DNA from: Rhynchobatus australiae
Taxonomy: Eukaryota
Direction: 5' to 3'
NCBI GenBank assembly: GCA_034780895.1
Contig: JAUZTB010000066.1
Coordinates: 22,666,242-22,730,212 of the forward strand
DNA: 63,971 nt
Positions 8,891 through 57,767 of this stretch are shown here, one piece after another (positions within the stretch are counted from its first letter, which is position 1; each line of letters starts with the position of its first letter). A program made the position numbers and the translations under genes. The notes beneath the pieces were generated by a model, which was not told the origin of the DNA, did not search any database, and was given only the letters and a program-made list of their open reading frames with translations.

Positions 8891-9147
8891 AGGAGAGATG
8901 GAAGATTTAAATGGGACCTGGGGGGCAAGTTTTTCACACAGAGGGTGGTGGGTATGTGGAACAGGCTGCAAGAGGAAGTGGTAAACAGTTACAATGTTTA
9001 ATAGATATTTGGACAGGTACATAGATAGGAAAGATACATGGAAATGGGCCAAATGCAGGCAAATGGGACTCACTCAGGAAGGCCACTTCGTTAGCATGGA
9101 CGAGTTGGGCCGAAGGGCCTGTTTCCAAGCTGAATGACTCTATGACT
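8891..9147 (+). mobile_element. CR1/HER1-type LINE 3' end
   Basis: Encodes GRFKWDLGGKFFTQRVVGMWNRLQEEVV (CR1 ORF2 C-terminus), then the 3' UTR gggccgaagggcctgtttcc and a gactctatgac tail. Confidence 0.9.
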
Positions 9148-9784
9148 TGTTGATCCATCCATTATCATCCTTTCCTTTCCTGTGGTTGTTTTGTTTTACT
9201 TTGCCATGTTCTTGTCCAGCTTTTCCATCTCAGACAAAGCTGCAAAAACAGCCAACATAAAATCTCAGAGTCTGGAGAAGTGAGACTACAATTTTATAGA
9301 ATTCCTCCCATCCCATGGGTAGTACACTTACTGCTCTCTCTTTTCGTCCAACACACTAAGCGGTTATGAACAAGCTGCTTCAATCTTACTAGTTGGAGAA
9401 AGCTTCAGAACTTACCAGACAAAAATGACTGACTGAGAATTAGTGATCATTCTCCATCAATAGTATAAAACAACAAACTTGAAACAATGTAGTATGAAAG
9501 GTCCTTGATCTAATGTACTTACGTTTTTAAGCCTGGATTTTTAGGCCTACTGCACCATTTACTGACGTTAGAGAAATGGAAACTAGATCAATGCAAAACT
9601 GTGGCTGGCTTCTAGTAAGGACATGATCCCAGATTTGTACACCATTCATATACTCCACAAAGTTATTTCCTTAAAAGTTGGCATCCTATTCACACTATTG
9701 AATAGCCACAGACTGTGGTAAGGTTTTCTTTCTGATGACACTGAATGCTAACATATTAGATATCTAATGCTGTGGAACTTGCTT

Positions 9785-13409: not shown

Positions 13410-13918
13410 GTTTGCTCATGGTTCTGGCTGCCACACTGCAGGAAGGATGTAATGGCACTGGAGAGGCTGCAGAGGAGATTTATCGGGATGTTGCCTGGGA
13501 TGGACTAAGGAGAGACTGCATAAGCTGGGTTTGAGTTCCTTGGAGCAAAGGAGGCCGAGGGGGAACCTGACAGAGATGTTCAAAATTATAAGAGACAAGG
13601 ATAGGATAGATAGTAAGAAACTCTTCCCCATGGCAAAGGTGTCTAAGACTGGAAGGTAAGAGGTATGAAGTTTAGGGGGGATCTGAGGAAGAATCTTTTC
13701 ATCCAAAGAGTGGTTGAAATCTGGAACACACAACCTGAGGGGGTGCTGGAGGCAGGTTCTCTCACAACATTTAAGAAGCATCTGGACAATTAATTGAATC
13801 AGCAAGCTGGAGTAGGATATGGACCACGTGCTGGTAACTGGGATTAGTATAGATAAGAGCTGGATGGTCAGCATCGACATGGTGGGCTGAAGGGCCTGAC
13901 ATAATGACTATGACTCTA
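13410..13918 (+). mobile_element. CR1-type LINE 3' fragment
   Basis: ttctggctgccacactgcaggaaggatgtaatggcactggagagg reads FWLPHCRKDVMALER. Later come the agagtggttgaaatctggaac motif and the tail gggctgaagggcctg..actatgactctat. Confidence 0.9.
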
Positions 13919-15469: not shown

Positions 15470-16800
15470 TGAATATACTCAGTGACTGAATTTCCACAGC
15501 TGTCCTCTGGAAAGATATGCAAAGATTCACTACCCGCTAGATGAGAAAATTTCTTCTTGTGTCAGTTCTGAATGGACAATGCTTTCTTTTGAGAATTTGA
15601 ACCCGCAGATGTAGATCTTGGAATTGGATCTGTCCCAATGCAGGTTTTCAACTCAAAACATTGACAATTCCTTTCCACCCACAGATGCTGCTCGACCCAC
15701 TGACTTCATCCAACAGATTGTTCGTAACATTAGTTCTGTATCTGCCCTCTCAAACACCTGAAGAATTTTGTTCATTTCAATTAGATCACTTTTCATTCTT
15801 CTAAACTCAAGAGAATACAGATTGTCTGCTTAATTTCTCTTGATATGACAATCTCCCCATCCTAGGAATCAATCTGCTGAACCATTACTACATTACTTCT
15901 GTCAGAAGTACATCCTTATTTTGAAAGAAAAAACTGACTTACACATACTTTTTCAGATACAATCTCAGTGCAATTCCATATAACGAGAGCAAGAAATCTC
16001 AACACTGAGATTCAAATCCTCTTGCAATAAAGGCAATGTACCATTTGCCTTCCCCTATAGCTCGCAGTACCAACACATTAACATACAGTGATTTGTGTAC
16101 AAGGGCATGCAAGTCCTTATATACTTGCAATCTCTCGTCATTGGAAAAAAATTCAGCCCTCCATTTTTTCTGCATTGTGTTCCACCTGTCATGCCGTTGT
16201 CCATTCACTTTGCCTGTCTGTATCCCCCTCACAACCTACAACACCACTTAATCTTGTATTGTCAGCAAACTGGCATCTATTACTATTATCTCCTCATCCA
16301 AATCATTGATATAAATTGTAGACAGAAGGGGCCCCTGCATTAAATCCTGCTTCCCACGCCCTAAAAATGACCCATNNNNNNNNNNNNNNNNNNNNNNNNN
16401 NNNNNNNNNNNNNNNNNNNNNNNNNNNNNNNNNNNNNNNNNNNNNNNNNNNNNNNNNNNNNNNNNNNNNNNNNNNTGCTTCCCACGCCCTAAAAATGACC
16501 CATCAATTCTTCCTCTGTTTTTTGTCTATTAACCAATCCTCAACCTATGCAGGTATATTACCCCCAATGCCATGAGGTTTAATTTTGTTTAATAACTTCT
16601 TATGAGGTAACTTATCAAAGGCTTTCTAAAAGTTAAAAACCATCACATCAGCTTTTGAGTTTATACAACCTCAAACAGATTTGCCTTAAAATGATTACCC
16701 TTTCATAAATACATGTTGACTTTGTCCAATCTTGTAGTTATTTTCCAAGTGTCCTGCTTTGATTTCCTTAATAACAGCATTTTCCCCAATGCTGTTTAAC
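15470..16800 (-). mobile_element. CR1-type LINE, degenerate RT region
   Basis: Minus-strand peptides (IAFIARGFE; LHALVHKSL) and overall similarity to 11099-13309. Interrupted by a PLE-derived piece at ~15630-15725 and a 100-N gap. Confidence 0.75.
15630..15725 (+). mobile_element. Penelope pseudo-LTR fragment with decayed hammerhead
   Basis: tgtc-ccaatgc-aggttttcaactc-aaaa-catt-gaca keeps stem I (tgtc/gaca) with a mutated core, followed by the family tail cacagatgctgctcgacccactga. Confidence 0.65.
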
Positions 16801-17044: not shown

Positions 17045-17205
17045 CAGATAATGCTAGAAATATCCAATGGGCCAGGCAGTATCTGTAGAGAGGGACAATT
17101 AACTCAGTCTGTCAGTGCACAGATGCTGCCAGATTTACTGAGTGCTTCTTGAATTGTCTGACTTTACTCTGCTGGTGATGGTCTTTTACTAGAAATCTTA
17201 ACCCT
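17045..17205. mobile_element. Inverted Penelope pseudo-LTR relic with decayed hammerhead
   Basis: ggcagtatctgtagagag and cacagatgctgccag form inverted arms. A hammerhead-like ctggtga-tggtcttttacta-gaaa lies at 17172-17195. Confidence 0.55.
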
Positions 17206-20455: not shown

Positions 20456-21090
20456 CCATTTTGGGTTCAGGAATGGTGTCATTTCCAGAGCAGTTCTACT
20501 TAAATAGGAGCTGCCTCATGCATTTCTCTACACACTTGTACTGTACTGTAAACACTACAGTCAGTGTAATAATGGTATGACTTTGTGACTTGAACAGGAT
20601 ATTTGCATCTTTCATGTGTATAACTTTATTTTGGCAAACTGAGTAAACACTCAGTGAGATAGTACTGTATGCAAGCTTTATTTCATGGTAAGATAAGTGT
20701 NNNNNNNNNNACTTAATTCAATCACCACAATTTATCTTTGCTGTAATAAAGAAATGAAGAAATTATTCTGTTTCCCTGCATCAATGGGTTGTCTTAGTTG
20801 ATTTAAGCAAGATGACTGTTAAATTCTTGGCATTTTTTGGCCTTGGCTATCCAGTTCCTTCACAGTAGCAACTGGTGACTGCCCTTGAACGAAGGCTAAT
20901 GCATCTAACCTTTGTGTTAGTGTTAGGCATTTTTTAACAGTGTAAGAAATTGACTGTCATTTGCAGCCTTATGGGCAAAGACTTGTGAACACTAAATCAT
21001 TGCCATCTTAACACTCTATCAGCTCACAGCTTTTGTTCACACTTTTGATTAAATGTACTGAACTTTTAAAAAATCCAGCATTAAGAGTAA

Positions 21091-21307
21091 AACCATAAAT
21101 TCTGTGCATTCTCAGTGGGTCAGTCAGCATCTATGGAGAGAGAAGCAGAGTTAATGTTTCAAGTCAGTGATCATCAGAATTAATGTTTCTGGTCATTAGT
21201 TCAGGAATTAATTCAGTTCCTTCCTCCACAGATGCTACTTAACCTGCTGAGTAACCCCAATATTTTCTTTTACTTCAGATTTCCAGCATCTGAAGTAGTT
21301 GCTTGAA
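21091..21307. mobile_element. Inverted Penelope pseudo-LTR mini-element
   Basis: Inverted arms at ~21111-21155 and ~21206-21251. Minus-strand CTGATGA..GAAA core at 21153-21177. Flanked by cattaagagtaa and cattacgagtaa. Confidence 0.7.
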
Positions 21308-29997: not shown

Positions 29998-30453
29998 GCG
30001 TAGGAGGGGTTTGACAAACCTGGGTTGTTTTCTCTGGATCAGCGGAGGCTGAGGGGAGATCTGATACAAGTTCATAAGATTATGAGAGTCATAGATGGAG
30101 TAGACAGCCCATATCTTTTTTTCCAGGATCCAAATATCTGATACTGGAGGGCATGCATTTAAGGTGAGAGGGGGCAAGTTCAAAGGAGATGTGCGGGCAA
30201 GTTTTATTTTATACAGAGAGTGGTGGGTGCCTGGAATCTGCTGCCAGGGATGGTGAGGAGACAAATACGATATGAGCGGCATTTAAGAGGCTGTGAGATA
30301 GGCACCTGAATGTCCAGAGAATGGAGGAATATGGATGTTGTGTTGGTATAAGGGATTAGTTTAGTTAGGCATTTACCTACTAGTTTAATTAGTTCAGCAC
30401 AACATTGTGGGCCGAAGGGCTTGTTCCTGTGCCGTACCGTTTTACGTTCTATG
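29998..30453 (+). mobile_element. CR1-type LINE 3' end
   Basis: cggaggctgaggggagatctgata (RRLRGDLI), gagggcatgcatttaaggtgagaggg, cagagagtggtgggtgcctggaatctgctgcca, and the tail gggccgaagggcttgttcctgtgc..gttctatg. Confidence 0.9.
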
Positions 30454-32082
30454 ATGGTGGTTGATACACCGCCATAAAGAATGTAAATTTGCCAAATAAT
30501 TAATGCCTTTCTTCCTTCTCTAATTCAAGTTCCATTAAGAAAATCTGGAGCTTTCACCATCATCGCACTGATGGACTTTTCTAATTTGCAGTGGCTTTTG
30601 CAAGTCTTCATGTAATTACATTCATCACATATCAGCTGGATTCCGAATCACTTTCACAAGCTTCTCATCAACACTCTTTTGATGAGTTCTTTCCTGCAAG
30701 TGTTGTTCAGTGGCAAATAATATGTGCAATGCAACTTCTGGGAAATAAGAAGAGACTTTGTTTATTTTTCTTGCAATGGTAGCAATCAGTTTTATTCCAC
30801 AGTATCAGCAATATTCTCATTCTTGGCAAAGTATTTGAAGCAATGCACAATTAGCCAATCTTTTCACATTAGCTGGGGATCACTGTTAGCTGACAGATGA
30901 GTGTTGGTGCCTAATATCGAACAGGGTTTTTAAGTGGAGCCATTTCTGGAAAACATACCTATATGTTTTGAATGGTCATATGCCATTGCAAGGAGGATTA
31001 TTAGCATAAACTTTGAACCACTGAATGCTAGTACACTGGCTTAGATTTTCATCCTTGCTTGTCTATACTAAATATATCATACAGCAGTGTGCTGCTTTGT
31101 AGCCTGCCTCTAAAATTCAGTTTAATGCAACTGAGGAAATAAAGCCATGTTTTATTGCACTTTCATTCACCAAGCAGCGTGTCTTACGCACCTGATTCCA
31201 GCACATTTAAAAACTATCTATACAAGGATGAAAAGTCCCAAGCCTTATTTCAGTTAAAATTGCTGAAAAGCTGTGTTTAAGAAATAAGACCTTTCCACGT
31301 ATTGATTAAACAAGAACCTGAATTATCCTATCATTCTGCTCGATAGATTGGGCAAACTGAGTACAAAATGGTGATTTTGGGGAACTGTGTATCGGGATTT
31401 ACACAGTATTTAATCTTTTCCTACCCCCTTGTCAGTTTTCCTTCAAGTATTTCAGGTTGCATTCTAAATGTATTTCTTCAAGAAATTATGTTACAATTGA
31501 AGAGGTGCTTACCACATCAGTTATATTAATACCCATTAATAGTAATCCTTTACTCACAGTGATCAATATCTACTTTCCGAAACCATAACCCATGTGATCC
31601 TATTGCAACTATTTTACAGTGATTATTGAAACTCTTGCCACTTTGTTAGCTTCCTGCTGCTTATGGAAGATCCATGCATAGGAGTTGGTGGCATCAGCAC
31701 TGTGTGAAAACAATATACAAATTCAAACAGCCAATGGACTGATCAATGCTACTTGGCAGTCGAGTATTTTAAACAGTCGAACACACTAAGGATTACTATT
31801 TTAGGTTTGGAGCATGAATCAAACAAAGCTTTGATCAAAAAAATTGTATGAAGTAACAATTTTATCCAAGGGAGTATGATTGAAAGAGTTGAAGCTCAAC
31901 AAACATCGTTCTACAATTAGAACCAAAAATGCTTTTCCACACACGTAACCTGAGATGGTTGTTTGGATTACCATGTGTGGCCTTTCCTGTACCCACAGGT
32001 ATCCTGGAGAGTAGTTTTGTGTGTAGTTCAAACTAATTAAGTTCCACAAGAAGCTAATTTACTGCTCTCTAATGAAATAAAA

Positions 32083-32841: not shown

Positions 32842-33330
32842 CAAAACGGAGACAAGAGACTGTGGATGATGGACTCCAGTTCTTCCTACACCCACCCCAG
32901 CCCCCATCACCCTGTTTCTTTCTCCTCCTCAACCCACTCCATCTACCCATCATCCACACCCTCCTCCCACTAGGTCCCCTCGCCCATTGTTCCCACCTGC
33001 CCTCACATCTCCCTCACTTGGCCCCATGCTCCACCTTCCTCTTATCAGATTCCATCATCTTCAGCCTTTTGTTGCCTCCACCTATCACTTCTCAGCTTCT
33101 GTCATTATTTCCACTCTCCCCTCCTCCATCTCCCCATCACCCCTCCTCACCTGGATCCACTTATTGCTTGCTGGTTCTTGCTCCATCTCTTCCATCCACC
33201 TTTTTACACTGGCTATCTCCCCGATATCTTTCAGTCCAGATGAAGGGTCTCAACCCAACACATTGACAGTCCATTTCCCTCCATTGATGCTGCCTGACTC
33301 AGAGTTCCTCCAGCATCTGTGTGTTGCTCA
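32842..33330 (+). mobile_element. Penelope-like element 3' UTR / pseudo-LTR with decayed hammerhead
   Basis: Pyrimidine-rich tract ending cagtc-cagatga-agggtctcaaccc-aaca-catt-gacag (33232-33269), then gatgctgcctgac..ctccagca. A short inverted start gagacaagagactgtggatg precedes it. Confidence 0.75.
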
Positions 33331-35819: not shown

Positions 35820-36110
35820 AGACCTCAATTGTAATTCTGGGGATCTTCAATCATCTTGGTGCAGGGAGGGATTCCCTGTTAGCAGAGCTCTGTGTGCATT
35901 AGGGAGCTTATTGAAATATTTTAAGAATCTTTCCTTAAACAGCAGTTTAGTGAACCCACAAGGGGAACGTTAATATTACATCCTAACTTCTAATAAGTGA
36001 AATAAGAGCTTTTAGGTCAGTGATCATAAAGTTACTAAGTTTAAGATTGAAATGAGGGCAGAACACATAATGAAAACTATTTAAAACATAGTTCAGAGGC
36101 TCAGAGGAGC
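35820..36110 (+). mobile_element. Ancient CR1 endonuclease remnant
   Basis: Reads VILGIFNH (cf. VIMGDFN), FLKQQFSEPTRGTLILH (cf. FLxQxVxEPTRxxAILDL) and SDHKVTKFKI. Confidence 0.6.
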
Positions 36111-36183
36111 TGAAACTATGTANNNNNNNNNNNNNNNGAACTATTTAAAGAGAACTTAGAGAAAAATGGGGTGAGTTTTCAAT

Positions 36184-36220
36184 AGTTCTGATGACAGGTC
36201 ATTGACCTGAAATGTCAACT
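36184..36220 (+). ncRNA. Minimal type I hammerhead ribozyme motif within a Penelope pseudo-LTR fragment (fragment extends to ~36285)
   Basis: AGTT (stem I) CTGATGA C AGGTC-ATT-GACCT (stem II) GAAA T GTC AACT (stem I'). All core nucleotides are present and the predicted cut is after C36216. Confidence 0.75.
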
Positions 36221-36772
36221 CTCGTTCTCTCTCTGAAGATGCTGTCTGATCTGCTGAATATTTCAAGTATTTTGTATTTTCACTTTTTAGTTTTAAAGAT
36301 TTTTTAACATTTTGTCAGAGAAATGAGTTGAGAACCAAGAAGGAGAAAGAAATCCTGATGCATACCAGGTTTTCTCCCTGTTCTCCCAAATAGGGAGAAA
36401 ATAAAATCAGGTAGCAGAAAATAATAAAATGGATGAGGGATGTGAAGGGAAATGTGGTGGAAGGTACAAAGAGAAATAACAGAGAATATCATGACAAAGG
36501 GAAGAGTACAGAAGGATGTTTGTTCATTATCCGCTGTCTGTTGGTAGTGATGTCTGAGGTGGCAGAATTTCTAAATCAATAAACTCTACATGGTGTTGTT
36601 CACAGTGAATCAGACAACATAGCCACTCACTTACTTGTCCCCAATGTCTTTATGTTACTGACTGTCGAGTGAACTTCTTCTGCTTGACTTTCTCACCAGC
36701 TGCTTCATTTTTCTTCCGTCTGCCTTTTCACTTTGGGTGGGAAGTGAGCAGACAAAGGCTGTGTAATGCATT

Positions 36773-37489: not shown

Positions 37490-38059
37490 ACCACCTCCTT
37501 TTCCTACCCCCTTGTCAGTTTCCCTCCGTGTTTTGGTTTGCATCCTAAACATACCTTTTCAAAAAATTACATTGCAATAGAGGAAGTAAAAATCTGCCAG
37601 TTTACCTTGCTCTGTATTTGTATCTTTTCTCTGTCTCATAATGAGTGAAATTTGAATCTCTTACAGGTGTACACAATTAACATTGATCTTCTTTGTCAAC
37701 AAAACACAAATGAGGTAATTAGTTGGGCTCAAATTTTAACTGGCAATTCTTTGAAAATTAGGTTCATGTTATGCGAAGTAATTCCTTCTAACTCTCCTCT
37801 ACACCTTGTATTCCATACCTCACCAGTATTCTGATATCATTCGACTGGGGCTCAGAAGCTCAGTCTAATTTAACACTGTGTTAACATTGCCATTTCATGT
37901 ATTTTTCTCAGCAATAATAAATGGAATTTGTTAGACATGTGAAAGGGATTTGCAACTTTTCCTTGAGAATCCATTAAGCTCAGTTTTAGGCTGCTGAGGC
38001 TGAAATATAGGCTTGCTAAATCTACCTGCAGGTCCTCACACATTCTTCACAGGGTCTTG

Positions 38060-38411: not shown

Positions 38412-38790
38412 ACTCTGGAGCAAAGAAGACTGAGGGGTGACTTGATAGAAGTGTATATCTTTATGAGAAGCACAGGTAAGGTAGTCAAACTATTTTTACC
38501 GTGGCAGGGGCATTGAAAACAAGAGGGCATAGGTTTAAGGTGAAAAGAAGCAGTTTTAAAGGGAATTTTGTGGTAGGATTTTTATGCAGAGAGTGGTTGA
38601 TATCTGGAACCCACTGCCAGAGGAGGTGGTGAAATCCAATACAATCAGTGTGCTTCAGTGGCTTTTAGGCAGACATTGACAAGGCATAAAAGACAGTACT
38701 AATGTGGGTAAATGGGATTAGTATAGTTGGGCAAAAAGGATGGCATGGACCTGGTGGGCTGAAGGGCTTGTTTCTGTTCTGTACAACTCT
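38412..38790 (+). mobile_element. CR1-type LINE 3' end
   Basis: ctggagcaaagaagactgaggggtgacttgatagaagtgtat (LEQRRLRGDLIEVY), aacaagagggcataggtttaaggtg and the tail gggctgaagggcttgtttctgttctgtac. Confidence 0.85.
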
Positions 38791-41700: not shown

Positions 41701-42277
41701 AAATTGACAAAGATGCTGCCATCTTTTCTGTTGTCAATTTCCGTTATGGATCCCAATGTCTGCAGTTCTCATCACTTACACAACTTAAATATTTCTTGCA
41801 CTAAATGAGAAACAAATTATTTCCATCTTAGCTTTATATAAATGATGTGTAAGGTCCTGTTTTCTTATTTGATCTCTCTATACTGAGTGTTATATTTAAT
41901 ATGAAACTGTCAAAATTCCAAGTTTATTTTCACTCTAACATGCAATAATTGATGACTGTTCACCCATTCATTCCAATGTAGATAGTTGGAGATAAATAGA
42001 GAGAGTTAGAACACCAACTGTAAATTTATCTAGAAAGTCTGGATAGAAAGTCTCGTTTTTATGTTGTGGAGGAGGGGTGGGAGAGCAAGGATTTGTTGGT
42101 GACAGGGTGGTTGTTGGTGGGATTTATTAGGATGCTTCAATTCAGGATTCAGCTTGCCCTTTGGCACTATTGATGTGCACTATAGGGAAGTAGAAGAAAG
42201 TATTTCGATGCAACTTGTATTGCAACTTCAAGGCACCTCAAACCACTTCATTGTCAATTAGTTCCCTTTGAAGTGAA

Positions 42278-42334
42278 AATAGAAAAGGCTAGAAATACTT
42301 AACAAAGCAGGCAAAAATCTATGGAGAGAAGAAT
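42278..42334 (-). mobile_element. Terminal pseudo-LTR piece of the Penelope element interrupted by CR1
   Basis: gctagaaatacttaacaaagcaggcaaaaatctatggagagaagaatagag resembles the left arms at 21100-21150 and 49960-50005. Confidence 0.6.
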
Positions 42335-44896
42335 AGAGTCATAGAGTACAACAGCACAGAAACAGGCCCTTTGGTCCATCTAGTCCATGCCGACCTATCT
42401 TCGGCCTAGCCTCATTTACCTGCACTTAGACTATACCCCTCCAAACCCCTCCCATCCATGTACTGTACCTATCCAAACTTCTCTAAAATGTTACAATATG
42501 GTAGATAAGCATATGGAGGAACTTAAAATAGAGGGATATGTGGGAGGAAGGGGTTAGATAGTCTTAGACGAGGCTTAAAGGTCAGCACAACATTTTGGGC
42601 CGAAGGGCCTGTATTGTGCTGTACTGTTCTATGGTTCTATGAACCTGCATCTACTACTTCCATTCCACACTCACACTGCCCTCTGAATGAAGAAGTTTCC
42701 CCTCAGATTCCCCTTATATATTTCACCTTTCCCTCCAAACCTGTGTCCTCTAGTTCTAGTCTCATCCAACCTCGGGAAAAAGCCTGCAGACATTCAGCCC
42801 ATCTATACCCTTCATAATTTTGTATACCTCTATAAGATCTTGCCTCATTCTTCTGCATTCCAGGGAATAAAGTTCTAACCTATTCAGCCTTTCCCGATAA
42901 CTCAGGTCCTCAAGTCCTGGTAACATCCTTGTCAATTTTCTCTGCACTCTTTCAAGTTTAATGATATCTTTCCTGTAGGTAGGGGACCAGAACTGCACAC
43001 AATACTTTAAATTCGGCCTCACCAATGTATTCTACAACTTCAATGTAACATCCCAACTCCTGTAATCAGTGCCCTGATTNNNNNNNNNNNNNNNNNNNNN
43101 NNNNNNNNNNNNNNNNNNNNNNNNNNNNNNNNNNNNNNNNNNNNNNNNNNNNACCTGTATTCCCAGGTCCCTCTGTTTTACCGTGCACACCTCAGAGGCC
43201 TACCATTTACTGTGCAAGTCCTACCCTGGTTTGTCCTCCCAAAGTGCAACACTCATACTTGTCTGCATTAAATTCCATCAGCCATTTTTCAGCCCATTTT
43301 CCCAGCTGATCCAGATCACTCTGCAAGCTTTGATAGCCTTCCTTGCTGTCCCCCACGCCCCCAATCTTGGTGTCATCTGCAAATTTGCTGATCCAGTTTA
43401 CCAGATTATCATCTAAATTATTTATATAGATGACAAACAACAACAGACCCAACACCAATCCCAGCAGCACATCACGAGTTACAGACCTTCTGTGAGAGAG
43501 AAATCCACCTACTACCACTCCCTGGCTTCTCCCGCTAAGCCAAAGTTGAATCCAATTGGCTACTTCATCCTGAATGCCAAGCGACTTAACCTTCTGAACC
43601 AGCTTCACATGCCGGACTTCGTCAAAGACTTTGCAAAAATCCATGTAGACAACGTCCACCGCCTTTCCCTCACCGACTCTATAAGATTGGTTAGACATGA
43701 CCTACCATACACAAAGCCATGTTGACTATCCCTAATCAGGCCCTGTCTAGCCAAATACTTTTATATGTTGTCCCTTAGAATGCCTTCCAATAATTTACCC
43801 ACAACTGACGTCAGGCTCACCAGCCTATAATTTCCCATCTTATTCTCAGAGCCTTTCTTGAACAACGCAACAACATTAGCTATCCTCCAGTTCTCCAGCA
43901 CCTCACCTAAGGCTAAGGATATTTTAAATGTCCCTGCCAGGGCCCTTGCAATTTCTGCACTAGCCTCCCACAAGGTCCGAGGGAACACCTTATCAGGCCC
44001 TGGGGATTTATCCACTTTAATTCGCCTCAAGACAGCTAGCACCTCCTCTTCCGTAATCCGGATACAATCCATGACTTCACAACACTTTTGCCTCAGTTCT
44101 ATAGTCTCTGTCGCCAGAGTAAATACAGATGCAAAAAATTCACTTATGATCTCTCTCATCTCTCTCAGCTCCATGCATAGATGACCATACTGATCTTCAA
44201 GAGGACCAATTTTGTCCCTTGCTCTTAATATAGCTGTAGAAACCCTTGGGATTCTTTTTCACCCTGTCTGCCAGAGCAACCTCATATCCTCTTTTTGCCC
44301 TCCTGATTTCTCTCTTAAATGTTCTCTTGTATTTCTTATACTCCTCAAGTGCTTCATTTGATCCTAACTGCCTATACCTTGTATCTGCCACCTTTTTCTT
44401 TACCAGGGCCTCAATATCCCTTGATAACCCAAGATTCCTTAAACCTGCTAGCCATGCCTTTTATTCTAAGAACATACAGATTCTGTACACTCAATATTTC
44501 ACCTTTGTAGGCCTCCCTCTCACCAAGCATCTCTTTGCCAGAAAACAGCATATCCCAATCCACATCTGCCAGATCCCTTCTGATGCCATCAAAAGTGGCC
44601 TTACTCCAATTTAGAATATCAACCTGAGGATCAGTCCTATTCTTCTCCATAATTATCCTTAATGGAATTAATGGAATATTAATGGAATTATTATCATCAG
44701 ATCCAAAGTGTTCCCTGACACACACTTCTGTCATCTACCCTGTCTTGTTCCCTAAGAGGAGATCTAGTATCATGCTCTCTCTAGTTGGGACCTTTACATA
44801 TTGATTAAGGAAACTTTCCTGAACACATTTGACAAACTCTATCCCATGGAATCCCTTTACAGTATGGGAATCCTGGTCATTATGTGGAAAGTTAAA
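42335..44896 (-). mobile_element. CR1/HER1-type LINE, 5'-truncated ORF2 pseudogene (endonuclease + reverse transcriptase) and 3' UTR
   Basis: ORF-track peptides include KSPGPDKVFPRTL..NYRLVSLTSVVGKLLE, VDVVYMDF..LFVIYINNLD..KFADDTKIG and VRPNLKYCVQFWSP..LERVQR. Near 44780-44896 the strand reads FNFP..FLNQYVKVPTRE..ILDLLLGN. Frameshifts and an internal deletion near 43690. Confidence 0.95.
42498..42640 (+). mobile_element. CR1 3'-tail fragment inserted antisense into the larger CR1
   Basis: ggtcagcacaacattttgggccgaagggcctgtattgtgctgtactgttctatggttctatg is like the tail at 30395-30453. The host sequence resumes at gaacctgcatc. Confidence 0.85.
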
Positions 44897-45378
44897 AGGG
44901 TGAAAGTGCAACAAAGTAATAAAAGCCGAGGCAAGGGGTAAGTCCAGAGCTAAAATACCAAAAGAATTTGGAAGGAATGCTGGAAAGCTGGAATAAAAAA
45001 GCTGGAATGTTGAATATAGTGGGGTCTAGGTTACTGGAATGTGCCCAGTCGGTGACTGTCCTTTGAGCTGACGTTAAGCTTTGTCGGAATAATATCAGAG
45101 GCCAAAGACAGGACGCTGCAATCTGGTGTGGGCTGGAGGATTACATTGACGAGCGAGTGGAAGTTCGGGGTCACATTTGTAGAATGAACAGAGAAGTTGC
45201 ACAAATTAATAACCCTGTTGGCATTTGGTCTCCCAATGTACGCCAGGCTGTACTGTGATCTGAACGTTAGCTCTGCCAGACTTGTCATGAAGACTGTCTG
45301 ACTTACAGATTTATTACAGCAATTTTGATTTTACTTTTTCAATGTTTTATAGATTTCTAGCATCTGCGATATTTTGAG
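44897..45378 (-). mobile_element. Penelope-like element remnant with GIY-YIG endonuclease pseudogene
   Basis: The minus strand reads RSQYSLAYIG, then after a 1-nt frameshift ETKCQQGY*FVQLLCSFYKCDPELPLARQCNPPAH..VFGL*..RLGTFQ. This matches the PLE pattern YIGETxRxLxxRFxEH..PVAxHFN..RLGTLQP. An inverted pseudo-LTR tail (gatttctagcatctgc) lies at ~45290-45378. Confidence 0.8.
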
Positions 45379-49260: not shown

Positions 49261-49948
49261 TTAGTTTGTAAATACAACCAGCACCATCACTTTTATATTC
49301 CTTTACCTTGTTATTATTTCTGCAGGACTTCTTCACTCATGAACACAATTGTGCATCTTTACAGTGTATCTTTGTATCTTTACAGTGCTCCTGGCTTGTG
49401 CATTCCCTTATTACCCCATGCATGCAAATATATATTTTTTTGCATTTCTGATATGAAACGAAAGGTAGGGCCAGTCTTCCCCTCCAGGTACTATTTGGGT
49501 GCTGAACAAAGATAGTGTGCTCGAGGAAGCAGTTCACGATTTCTGTAACTTGACCTGGGAGGCCTTCGACTGTGAAGGGGCAAATGGTCCTGAGGCTGAA
49601 TGATTAGGCTGAGTCATGGAAGGAATGATGTAGAAAATGTACCAAAAGGCTAAGGAAATCCGTGGGATGTTCCTAGATCCTTCCAAGATCTTTCCTCAAT
49701 TCCTCTGAGGACCCAATGGATAAAGTCAGAAACAGAGAGGCAGTCGGGAATGTTTCCTCCAGCTCATTTACAGCCCTTGTGTGAAATTGGTTGCAATCAG
49801 AAGTCTTGGGGTAAAATATCTGGGGCAGAAACATGATACTATGGTTTCTCTGCTCATTTCTTCTGCTGGCCTAAGAAATGCTTAATGTACAGAAACAATG
49901 AAGAGAAAATGAAACACTTTTAATCAATGTTGGATGTTCCTCATTGTT

Positions 49949-50106
49949 AGCAACACACACAAAATGCTAGAGGAACTCAGCAGGTCAGCAGCATCTATGG
50001 AGGGAAATAAACTGTCGATGTTTCGGTTTGAGACCTTTCATCAGGGCTCCAGCATTTTGTGTGTGTTGCTCCAGACTCCAGCATCTTCAGAATTTCTTGT
50101 GTCTCC
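49949..50106. mobile_element. Inverted Penelope pseudo-LTR mini-element with hammerhead core
   Basis: 24-bp inverted repeats (49949-49972 and 50047-50070, 23/24 match) enclose minus-strand CTGATGA-aaggtctcaaacc-GAAA-CATC (50017-50044). Confidence 0.8.
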
Positions 50107-51750: not shown

Positions 51751-53486
51751 GCACCACCTTATGAAATAAAACTGGCCATGCCTCACTAGAGCCAAAACCT
51801 CCTGTAACCATTATTAAACTGAAAGTGGAAATATTCAATCTTATCCTCCTTGGTGTAGAAGGATGATTTTAACAATTCCTACTCCTTAATGGATGCATGC
51901 AGTATATTTCAAACTTTTTAGTTGAGGAAATGAGGGCTAACTTAGTTGGTCAGGGCCATGATACCAGGAAGCAAATATTGACTAGAATTCCTTCTCGTAA
52001 TAGCTGTTTAATAGTTACTGTTGGAAAGATACACATTTGGTAAGAATGCGATCATGATTAAGGTGGTGCTGTCCAAGACTGGATTGCCCATTGACATCAA
52101 CCATTTGGTCACTTGAGAACTCTTCTTATCTATTACATTTAAGAATCTCTTGAATAACCACATTCAGCACGATAAGGGAAAAATTAGAGCAGGGTGGTAN
52201 NNNNNGTGATTTTCCCTTAAGACATTAATGATACTAAAGTGATTAGGAAGAATATCCTTCAGCCCTGAAAGAAAATGTTCAGTGAAGAAGAGGTTTATGC
52301 AACATGCCAGATAAGGCATCAGTACTGCTTTTTACTAGTGACAGCAAGAGGGAAACATGAATTATCAAGGTCACGTCCCATCTTTGGAAACGATAAGGTA
52401 TTTTGTCAGCGGTAATTAGTTTCCAATTATGGTCAAAATATTATATTATAACCACTTTGTTGTCTGGTGACAGCCTTTGATCATGTTGCTTCAAAATCTG
52501 GCAGTATTTATGGCTCCATGTGATGTATGCTTCCTGTCAGACTTGAAATAACAGTAAATGCTGCTGAACAGGCCCCACCTGCTGAGCTGAATGCTCCAAA
52601 TCCCTCTGGCAGGTCAGCCCATTCCTCTGCAGAGACAGTTTCCGCCTGTCGTGGAGGTAGTTTACAGAAGCTACAAAACAGGAATATGTTTTTGAAGAGG
52701 CTTACAAAATCTAAATGACGCTGACAATATTCTTCCTAAGTTTGCAAAGCACTCAAATCTCCAAAGCCTTGGGTGTCTTTTTTTTCATGTGACACATATA
52801 AGCTGATATAAACCTGTCAGAAAACCTGTTGCCAAAGCTTCCCTTGAACATAATCCAATCTTATTCTTGCAATGTTCTGAGTATGCTTGGTGACATGTTA
52901 AGCCTTTGAGTATTACATTCCCTCTGGAGCTTTAGATTTCCACTACCATCATAAAAAATGGTTGGAGAAACTGACAACATAATGTTTAATCACTTGTAGC
53001 AGAGTATTCTCCTGATTAAATTGATTTCTAACAAAAACATGAATAAAGGCACCATGAAAGTCAAGTGAGAAATGTTTGCGCTTCAAATTTTGCATCAGAT
53101 CTTTTCTTCCTCAGCTTTTCCATTAATGTTTTAATGCAAGCAGCTGTAAAATTTACCATTCATACAAAGCATGTTGCATTTTTTAATGAGGTTATGCTGC
53201 ACTGATAAGTCACTTCATACTAAACTACTTGCAGAACAGTGACATTTTGAAGAAAATTTTCCTGGTGACTGCATTAATTAGTTTTAATGATTCTTGCTTG
53301 AAAATCTTGACAAGGATTATTTCCTTGTGGGTTGAATTTCTGGTGTTCCAAATACAAAGCCTGCACTATGCAAGATACTCAATAACTGTAAATCTACCTG
53401 GGAGCTCTTAGTTGTGCTATTTAGGGGAGGTTCTATAGTTTGACTTTCTGCAGGAAGATTGCGCTCTAAAAGCTTTTAAAAATGGC

Positions 53487-53558
53487 ATTATTATGAAGAT
53501 TGCAGTGGAATTATAGTGCAGGACTGGGCCACAATTCTGCTGCAATCTTCATAATAAT
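53487..53558 (+). repeat. Inverted repeat: 26-bp stem, 20-nt loop
   Basis: attattatgaagattgcagtggaatt (53487-53512) pairs with aattctgctgcaatcttcataataat (53533-53558): 24 Watson-Crick pairs plus 2 G-U pairs on the + strand. Confidence 0.9.
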
Positions 53559-53829
53559 TTCAGCTGCTTGATTTTAGCAAAGTATTTGCAACTCATAGTG
53601 TTAGTATCAGTAATGTTTTCTTTTGGGAAATCCAAGCCATTTTAACTCATAAACTTCACAGGAAGTGGATGAGGTGCTCCCTCTTGTATGATTAAAAATG
53701 CCAGTGTAACAAGGTAGATTTCTCTCGGACACAGCGCAAATTCAGATGAATGGAATTATGTGCGCCTTCAGGTTAATGAATGAAATCAACCAATGTTATA
53801 GTTGGATTTGACTTCAGATGAGGAATTGC

Positions 53830-54010: not shown

Positions 54011-56696
54011 GTTCTGCATCTCGACAGAATAACAGAACCTGAAGTAACATGGGATCTGTGGTTTCGGCAGAGATTGTATCTTGTCTAAAATGACAACAAC
54101 TGAATCAAAATAGTGACACATACTCAGAATAAGTTATAGGATTCGGAATGACTGACTTATCCAGAATATCACAGTTATGGAACCCAGGATATAGCTGTAC
54201 AGCTGTTACAAATGCAACATTAATATAACCAATGTGTATGATTGTAAATTTGTTAAGTGAGAATATTGGATGCTTCCAACACTAAGCTGTCAGAACATCT
54301 AGAGGAGACAAATAATGACAGAAGTTAGCTTGTAACGCTAACGACACCACTGCTACTGAAAAACTGCTGCTGCTCCAGCCAGTGTCCTCTCTTACGTTTA
54401 CATGACTACACTGTGTTCAGCAGAAGCAGGATCCACCTCCTCCCTTCATCCACCCACCACTGGTATTTCAAAGATCATTAGTTGCTTGGAGATTTGTTGC
54501 TGTTTTATTTCTGTTGCATATTGCCATGATTCTGCAAGTGTTTGATGCCTTTTGGATTTCTTTGCAGTTGTTAAAGTTGACATGCTGTGGTGAATCAGGC
54601 ACAAAAACACTTTGTCTTAAATCCAGTCTTCTGATTAACCAGTTTTCCCAAGACACAAGTGTATCGATAGGTATTCCCCTTGGAGTGCAACATGACCAAT
54701 AGATTGAGTGGAGAGCATAGAACAAGACAACTTGTTGGAAGAAGAAGGGAAGTAAGGCTCAAAACAGGTTGCTGCCTCTGTACGGGGTCTTTTGGAGAGC
54801 AATTCTCATGCCTGAACCTCAGTAAAGAGTTAATTCAGTAATGATATCCTCACTAAAATTTGTCAAAAGCTCCAGCCACAACTATAACTTCATCCCAGGT
54901 GAGCCCACTTTGCTGATCACTGTGGCCATGAGCTAAGTTTCAGACTCATTCAAGGCTGGATATTCACAACATCTTGCAGGATGCCATTTCTTGTTACATA
55001 ATGAAGATCAGTTGGGCACTCTACACCTTCAAAAACAATCCTAGTTTGTCTCATTTCTCCTCATTTAACCCTTGGAGCTCACAGATTATTATACTGCCCC
55101 CAAGGCCAGAGGTTTAGGCTCCATAATTTTCCTTGAGTGAGTTTCTGGTCCTTATGAACAACATTTAGATGTTTTGCTGCATTATTTTAGTAATTCAAAT
55201 TATTGTTGCTGTAAATGCATTATATTTTAATTTTTACTGTGCAGATCCTTTTTGTTTCATATGATCCATATGAATGAAATACAATACCTTGACCAAACTC
55301 TTATTCTCAGTCACGNNNNNNNNNNNNNNNNNNNNNNNNNNNNNNNTTTGATGTGCAGCCGCTGGTGTCTCTGATCCAAATCTTGCCGAGAGTACCATGC
55401 CAATTCTGTCTGACTTGAACTGGGAACCCAGACACAACTGATTGTTGATGTTACAAGCTTGCAGCTTAGAGACTTTCTCTGGAGAATCTCTAAATCAGGG
55501 CTGCTGCTCAGGATCAGGATGTCAGTGGGAGCCATGTTGATCGGACTACGTTCTGTGCATTTCTTCCAACTCCACTGTTGAGTGTTCCTGAACAAGCAAC
55601 TTTGTCAATAATGTAAATTATGGCCCTTTACTGTTTTGAACTGGGTATCAAATTTCAATGATTATTTTTATCATCTCTTAATGAATCTTTACATTAATGG
55701 CTTTCAAGCAGATCTTTCTGTTGGTACATCGATGAATTGATCTTGCATCCTACCTGACATTTCCTTTCATTACCTGCCTGGTTTCTCCTTTCTCCTTTCT
55801 TATTGCATTTTACAGTTTGATGATTGGACACTTGTGCAGAAGTTCCAAACAAAGTCATTAATATTGGCTGGTAAATATCAACATTTTCTCCCACACAAAC
55901 CAGAAACTCTGAGACTTGAGTGTTTTAGCTTCAATTGTGGAAGTCCTGAACTTGCTGATGGATTCAAGCCAGCAATGTTAGCAGTACAATCCACTGACAG
56001 ACTCCACACAGTAAGATTAGGATCTGCAAGAATAGTCTTTTCAATGGGGAACTTACAGCTGTGAAGTAGGATAGTAAGAGTAAAGGAAGTTACTATTTTA
56101 TTAATTGTTTGTGTTTGCACTGATTGTATTGATTATTTTACATGATTTCATGTCAAATATCACTTAATCATTTTTTTTCAACATCATGTTTCATTTCTAT
56201 TGGTCTTAGGATGCTTCTGAATATCATGGATGCTCATAATCATTTTAAGCACTTGACAGATTTGACAAATGGCAGAAATGAGAGCATGGTGTTCCCTCTG
56301 GTGAAGGTTTCCTCAGTAGTTTTGTGAATGGGTCTTGTTTTGGCCAATAACTTTGTGCAAGACCCTTGCACCACTCAGGATTTCATTACTTGGTCCAAGG
56401 CAATCATGGCCAACAAATACAGCCTCACAATCCAAACCAAGTAAGTGTAGGTCAAGGGGAATCAGAGAAGCAAGTACTGGGAGGAGCAACAATCAGCAAG
56501 TCCGGGCCATTAATCAACAACAGGAAAATTAAATCACTTCTGTATTTACAGTTGCAAAGTCACCATTTTGTTATTTGGTAAAGTTTTGTTTTTTCACTTT
56601 AGTAATTTATATATTAAATGTTGCATATTAGTTAATATATGTAGTATCTTAATAACCTGAATCTCCACGCGTTTCAATAGATCCTCTTCCATATGT

Positions 56697-56856
56697 AAAA
56701 CAGTACAGATGTTGGAAATCTGAATGAAACACTCAGCAGGTCAAGCGATGTTTCAGGTCAATGAACCTTCATCAGAACCTGAAGCATTAACTCTGTTTCT
56801 CTCTCCACAGATGTTGCCTGACCTACTGAGTGTTTCCAGCATTCTCTGTTTCATTA
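56697..56856. mobile_element. Inverted Penelope pseudo-LTR mini-element with hammerhead core
   Basis: Arms aaacactcagcaggtca and tgacctactgagtgttt. Minus-strand gtt-CTGATGA-AGGT-tcattg-ACCT-GAAA-CATC at 56747-56778. Confidence 0.75.
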
Positions 56857-57767
56857 GCAGATACTCTTGCGTGGTTTATCACCTCCCAGTGAACTTTGTT
56901 GCAGGAGCAGTGGAGAAGTAGAATGTGTGGTGGCAGGAGACCAGAAATAAATATAGTACTCTGTTACATTTATGTGGCTGTGTGAGAGATCAACCAATGA
57001 GCACTTCAAAAAAGATATTTTATTTCAAGTTTCTAACATCAAATTTTTTGCTGATGTGTTGGTCGGATGTAATATACTGCAGGTTATGAGTTCTCCCCGC
57101 TGGGACTGAATGCCAAGCCTGCATTCAAAAAGATAGCAGAAGCTTCTGACACATTTTGTGGTGTATGTATGTGGAGTCTGTGAAACGGAAAGGAAAACAG
57201 CTTCTTCTGTCAAACTGTCAGCGAAATGAGCTTTTATATTCAGTCAGCGCTGGGTAAAACATTGAAGAGTTTTTCAATGGCAAGTATGTGCTAGCTCCCT
57301 AGTGAGATCAGAAATATATTTCAGGTGCACAATTGCATACCAAAGTATTGTGTAACTACATCTCTCAATATCTTCACCCAATCACTGCCCATGTATGGTA
57401 TGAACTAAAGGAAATTGTTTCTGCTTAAGCCATATTGTCTTGTTTAAGGGTCTGCAGAGTCTGCCGCTTTTCACGTAAACACCACAATCAGTTGATTGCC
57501 AAGTGTGCACAGCAAACCTTAGCCTAATTCAGACCCCAAAGGGCTTATTGGAAACTATCCTGACAGAAGTGCAATATAAAAATAAATAAGAATATGTAAG
57601 AANNNNNNNNNNNNTTAATTTCAAAAACATGAAATGTTATTTGGAACTGTATGTTGAGATAGTTTTACGTATAGTGGGTGAGTGCTTAAGATCTTCCTAT
57701 AGTCTGCTGAGTAATGACAGAACTGCAGTTTAGACAGGAAGAATTGAAATTGGAAAGTTGCTGTTTG

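Follow-up and report, generated by a model that had tools for sequence, protein, structure and literature searches.

A minimal type I hammerhead motif in a probable Penelope-like repeat fragment of Rhynchobatus australiae

Architecture of the hammerhead motif

The window analyzed in this study, a stretch of 63,971 nucleotides from Rhynchobatus australiae, contains a complete minimal type I hammerhead pattern of 37 nt at positions 36184..36220 of the forward strand. Letter-for-letter reading of the sequence and descriptor searches confirmed exactly the letters, core, stems, and GUC triplet that the initial annotation had assigned to this motif (hereafter copy A), and the cut is predicted after C36216. 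In the hammerhead numbering, the 5' strand of stem I (36184-36187) is followed by the CUGAUGA box from C3 to A9 (36188-36194), an extra C at position 9.1 (36195), stem II (36196-36200 with 36204-36208, closed by a 3-nt loop), the GAAA box from G12 to A15.1 (36209-36212), the residues U15.2, G16.2, U16.1, and C17 (U-G-U-C at 36213-36216; the loopless AUGU), and the 3' strand of stem I (36217-36220). Stem I consists of 4 bp and stem II of 5 bp, all of which are Watson-Crick pairs.

Four descriptors of the minimal type I hammerhead were run on both strands of the whole window. Three of them match copy A and nothing else, whereas the fourth, which requires a Watson-Crick palindrome at 15.2-16.2, has no match on either strand. 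Rfam likewise returned no hammerhead at E ≤ 10. Among 300 dinucleotide shuffles, the as-found descriptor matched in none and each of the other descriptors in one. The combination CTGATGA..GAAA occurs 8 times in the window against 2.26 expected, a count that was reached in none of 100 shuffles. The minimum-energy fold of the 37-mer is a hairpin that pairs the core, i.e., not the hammerhead fold (z = -1.26). Because the motif has no helix III as a monomer, this fold and the Rfam result are unsurprising, and neither supports the motif.

The repeat family and other features of the window

Copy A heads a repeat of ~100 nt that is found at about eight sites in the window by sensitive blastn, a repeat finder, and direct reading. 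Comparison with the other window copies places its decayed 3' tail, which has a U-rich end, at 36221..36285 on the forward strand, and 16 of the 69 positions over 36217-36285 deviate from the majority of the seven other window copies or arms. The hammerhead part is present in five copies (A, B, C, D, and H), and only copy A passes the descriptors while the other four are broken, which bears out the earlier view that no copy in the window is better preserved. Paralogue B (21083..21185, reverse strand; inverted arm at ~21190-21270) has a 4-nt deletion at 9.1 and stem II and carries CA at 15.2/16.2. The core is kept in paralogue C (56690..56779, reverse strand; inverted arm at ~56777-56857), with a mismatch in stem II, CA at 15.2/16.2, and loss of the 3' strand of stem I. 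Paralogues D and H belong to a second subfamily. The stems of D (49945..50050, reverse strand; short inverted arm at ~50047-50070) are broken, and the 3' strand of its stem I reads GAC where the first subfamily has AAC. H (32880..33330, forward strand), which has a pyrimidine-rich body of ~350 nt upstream, is the same-strand copy closest to copy A, at a distance of 2.95 kb upstream, and both of its core boxes are broken (CAGAUGA at 33237 and AACA replacing GAAA). Among the remaining sites, paralogue F (17047..17160, strand unassigned) consists of two inverted tail arms and has no hammerhead part, paralogue E (42271..42339, reverse strand) consists of the tail only, and the heavily decayed paralogue G (15660..15715, forward strand) retains the GAAA side and the tail. 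The two subfamilies differ on both sides of the stem I pair that adjoins the core: copies A and B have U-A at this place, copies D and H have C-G.

An abutting inverted arm was observed in four of the six window copies tested (B, C, D, and F), with scores that are reached by 1 to 5 of 1,000 random stretches. No significant arm was found for the other two, copies A and H; for copy A, 226 of 1,000 random stretches score equally high. The segment 36138-36183 was considered as a decayed inverted arm of copy A and was rejected, since 714 of 3,000 random 46-mers and 1,040 of 3,000 shuffles score as high. No tandem array is present at the site of copy A.

The repeat family is clearly large. In the four runs, from four related organisms, 510, 801, 944, and 120 contigs, respectively, align to 36138-36772 at ≥90% identity, where depth is not equivalent to copy number. 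The contigs stack on 36182-36291, whereas over the flank the coverage drops to single contigs, and loose contig ends place the 5' limit of family similarity at ~36183.

Several other features of the window were recorded. A single RVT_1 match (E = 6.6e-14, at 43210-43701), 7 kb from copy A, was found among the 30 of 138 long open reading frames searched; it is read as the remnant of a decayed LINE (42760-45030, reverse strand), which we take to be CR1-like. Short ends of repeats similar to this LINE are located at 8931-9147, 13696-13899, 30206-30424, and 38579-38771. The long hairpin at 53481-53566, with 35-nt arms that are 83% complementary, is possibly a palindromic transposon remnant; its matches to miRNA models are weak and far under the gathering scores. 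An identical 28-mer on either side of a 100-N gap (16348-16503) is likely an artifact of scaffolding overlap. The segments 31415-31451 and 37498-37534, 6.1 kb apart, are 86% identical over 37 nt, with a similarity that seems longer in translation, and either belong to a further repeat family or stem from an ancient local duplication. A weak match to the U6atac model at 9257-9354 on the reverse strand (21 bits, E = 0.49, under the gathering score) is probably due to chance.

Relationship to Penelope-like elements

The architecture of copy A closely resembles that of the minimal hammerhead ribozymes (min-HHRs) of Penelope-like elements (PLEs), for which the consensus CUGANGAH-GNNNNN..NNNNNC-GAAAN-palindrome-NUH has been published (PMC4209133). 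Copy A shares with them the core, the nucleotide at 9.1, a long helix II, a short helix I, the absence of loop 3, and the NUH triplet; its stem II lies within the range of 4 to 8 bp of helix II and is combined with a short helix I and the type I closure. C36195 fits the H at 9.1 of the consensus, and C occupies this position in several of the published rows (PMC4209133). Copy A differs from the published motifs in the pair A10.1-U11.1, in the non-Watson-Crick U15.2/G16.2, and in having no linked open reading frame. As described in the same source, most PLE min-HHRs are solo and dispersed, and they number thousands per genome, i.e., about 4,000 in the coelacanth and 9,000 in Xenopus (PMC4209133, Cervera & de la Pena 2014).

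Insertions of EN+ PLEs are reported to be truncated at the 5' end, with an inverted copy in front of many of them (Craig et al. 2021, PMC8557442). The window copies likewise keep only the 3' end, and the inverted arms described above are consistent with this pattern, from which copy A itself differs in having no significant arm. The ~100-nt repeat is thus likely what 5' truncation has left of the terminal repeat (pLTR) of a Penelope-like retrotransposon. A Penelope origin, which the initial annotation had assigned, is strongly suggested by the min-HHR layout and by the inverted arms in four of six copies, although no RT/GIY-YIG open reading frame is linked to the repeat among 30 of the 138 long open reading frames of the window, and no RT/GIY-YIG remnant lies upstream of copies A or H in any of the six frames. 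A copy truncated at its 5' end would be expected to have lost such a reading frame. Pattern scans for a full-length element gave 0 and 0 matches in metagenome contigs and 0 and 0 in viral contigs; a single match in a prokaryote genome was rejected as chance, as it lies inside bacterial sequence without a hammerhead.

In non-LTR retrozymes, too, a type I hammerhead related to that of PLEs sits in a short repeat without coding capacity, and monomers occur dispersed (bioRxiv 10.64898/2026.07.22.740005). These elements are defined by tandem hammerhead units, whereas copy A is not part of a tandem array. One chondrichthyan genome is covered in that preprint (bioRxiv 10.64898/2026.07.22.740005), and the 56 published min-HHR representatives include no cartilaginous fish (PMC4209133).

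Departures from the consensus and predicted cleavage competence

The initial annotation described the motif as structurally intact. Nothing is missing from the core or from stems I and II, but the label is overstated, because the residues at 10.1-11.1 and 15.2/16.2 are off-consensus and most of the family has a triplet other than GUC. The pair 10.1-11.1 of copy A is A-U (A36196-U36208) where the usual pair is G-C, which is termed highly conserved, though not invariant, in PLE min-HHRs (PMC4209133). Counted by eye among the 56 published representatives, A-U at this pair occurs in 3 and U15.2/G16.2 in none (PMC4209133).

Positions 15.2/16.2 (36213..36214, forward strand) read TG in copy A; in six of the other copies or arms of the window the two letters are CA, and CG occurs in none. 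Since TG in one copy and CA elsewhere constitute the two-way signature of CpG decay, the ancestral state would have been CG, and the earlier proposal that AUGU is a CpG-decayed ACGU is well supported. Judging from these copies, the repeat family likely possesses the 15.2-16.2 palindrome, from which copy A would have decayed; the U-G here is likely a deaminated CpG that weakens helix III of the dimer. In the contigs of the four related-organism runs, no C at 36213 reaches ≥5% of depth. At face value this is not support for CG, and we take it as uninformative on an ancestral CpG, since contigs with 2 to 3 mismatches at this site would likely be removed by end-clipping and the 90% filter. A literature search for mutational data on 15.2/16.2 retrieved nothing. 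The helices of the strand-swapped dimer are predicted at -5.0 kcal/mol as found and -9.3 kcal/mol with C at 15.2 (about 4 kcal/mol weaker as found), and those of a heterodimer of copy A with a CG/U17 partner at -7.4 kcal/mol; these energies are relative only, as the model has no tertiary core and disfavors every version.

The C17 residue (36216..36216) is likewise a minority state, with the family mostly U: T accounts for 3300/3593, 11004/12033, 13066/14358, and 394/420 of the paralogue depth in the four runs (92-94%). In a viroid hammerhead, GUC proved to be the faster triplet (PMC1636495); by analogy, GUC in copy A would if anything favor cleavage, yet it is no sign of preservation. When the segments around the predicted cut site are compared (21140-21150 and 50013-50022 on the reverse strand, 56788-56794 and 36214-36219 on the forward strand), both subfamilies show a tendency to self-complementarity. 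N17 thus appears to covary with N1.1 (U|A in copy B and in the arm of C, C|G in D), and C17 of copy A breaks this pattern; the published representatives do not generally show such a co-change.

The suggestion that copy A could still cleave has so far found no support. Published min-HHR monomers show no cleavage and dimers only low cleavage (PMC4209133), and no intact same-strand partner for copy A is present in the window, copies B, C, and D being on the opposite strand. An 8-nt perfect inverted repeat of 36181-36188 is located upstream at 36138..36145 on the forward strand, adjoining a 15-N gap, and is predicted to sequester the 5' strand of stem I and C3. The mean probability of stem I is 0.08 to 0.64 in 12 folds starting at 36170 or 36184, 0.02 to 0.38 in 6 folds from 36155, and ≤0.01 in 6 folds from 36138, where the folding models ignore the tertiary core and the 15-N gap limits the flank context. 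We discarded the absolute probability computed for a "core-unpaired" fold, which has no meaning for a tertiary core. A short A/T-rich motif occurs three times upstream of the hammerhead, in the surroundings of the 15-N gap (36074-36149), and has one further, inverted occurrence just before stem I (36176-36187). No host gene family scored above the curated cut-off in 30 of the 138 long open reading frames and 30 of the 46 candidate exons (Pfam, 0/30 exons).

Orthologous insertions in related organisms

The insertion of copy A is present with its unique flanks in the related organisms B, C, and D; organism E was excluded from the orthologue counts, as the locus flank is covered in only 6 of 29 bins. 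Over ~470 nt of flank, B, C, and D carry 12, 22, and 24 substitutions, respectively (2.6%, 4.7%, and 5.1%). The contig of organism C has no substitutions over 36138-36212, although its flank has gained 2 nt by insertion; at the flank rate of 4.7%, zero substitutions would be expected with a probability of 0.25 in the 29 bases of the motif and of about 0.03 in all 75 bases, both calculated post hoc. The contig of organism D (36138-36223) has 3 differences, none of them listed in 36138-36181, i.e., ≤3 in 36182-36223 against 2.2 expected, and that of organism B (36138-36254) has 2, again none listed in 36138-36181, i.e., ≤2 in 36182-36254 against 1.9 expected; the paralogue pile-up hides the positions of these differences within the repeat. 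The comparison is low in power, and 36213-36220 is unreadable in every orthologue.

Selection on the motif as a host RNA-processing element would be in line with the insertion common to the three organisms, with the unchanged contig of organism C, and with the smaller deviation of the hammerhead part from the family, which is 2-4 of 37 positions (an assumed count) against 16 of 69 in the tail (Fisher p = 0.03-0.19, post hoc). However, B and D are close to the numbers of differences expected, and the flank 36138-36181, which lies outside the ribozyme, is equally unchanged, with no substitution in the three related organisms. The same trend is found between unrelated paralogues, in which the motif is 82% identical and the tail 69-72%; the greater similarity of the motif points to constraint on the source element and to selection of this copy by the reader, which biases the comparison, rather than to constraint at the locus of copy A. 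As helix III is moreover decayed, we regard such co-option as highly unlikely. The same low standing is given to a more specific version, in which the solo hammerhead was fixed before at least four species split, is under selection, and would cut a host transcript through trans-heterodimers with RNAs of the family repeats.

Origin and fate of copy A

Most probably, copy A is a fragment of a PLE terminal repeat and survives only as an inert solo fossil. Two tandem pLTR motifs of the source element would exchange strands, and their palindromic 15.1-16.1 tetramers would form a 4-bp helix III in the dimer, which would allow the precursor RNA to be cut after N17. Truncated reverse transcripts would then have scattered the 3' end through the genome. 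Copy A is proposed to have lost the CpG of helix III, to have no intact partner in cis, and to be exposed to the competing upstream pairing; for these reasons, no more than negligible cleavage is predicted for it in vivo. That it still looks complete is explained by the size of the family, which leaves some copies without a change in the core, one of which was picked by the reader.

The same origin combined with weak but real activity, in which a forward-strand transcript would occasionally be cut through a heterodimer in trans without any selected function, appears improbable. The completeness of the core and of both stems argues for it, as do the tandem U-G of helix III, which can still pair and is predicted to do so better with a CG/U17 partner than in the homodimer, the GUC triplet with its faster cleavage in the viroid hammerhead, a cricket hammerhead that has a G-U pair in stem III (PMC2837043), and a genome rich in potential partner copies. 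On the other hand, even dimers of intact min-HHRs cleave poorly (PMC4209133), the residues at 10.1-11.1 and 15.2/16.2 are rare or absent in the published representatives, the other window copies are broken and carry CA at 15.2/16.2, and no host exon was recognized among the 30 candidates. The least probable reading is a chance look-alike in the tail of a SINE, a LINE, or another non-Penelope repeat. The lack of an Rfam match and of a linked PLE reading frame would fit such a reading, and the pattern scans through public contigs brought no usable match; however, the descriptors match in 0 to 1 of 300 shuffles, five paralogues share the core while their subfamilies differ by a two-sided change of stem I, and the fit to the published consensus (PMC4209133) extends to its details.

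Minimal hammerheads in the terminal repeats of PLEs have been known since 2014 (PMC4209133), and the family of copy A, which is absent from the 56 published representatives, adds a lineage at most. For dispersed min-HHRs, no in vivo evidence is reported in PMC4209133, and their function has been called unclear (PMC8557442). If the locus were conserved and cleaving, it would bear on whether dispersed solo min-HHRs act on host RNA, and if a host transcript were cut through trans-heterodimers, host RNA processing would be tied to retroelement expression. The insertion shared by several species makes such action on host RNA testable with more orthologues.
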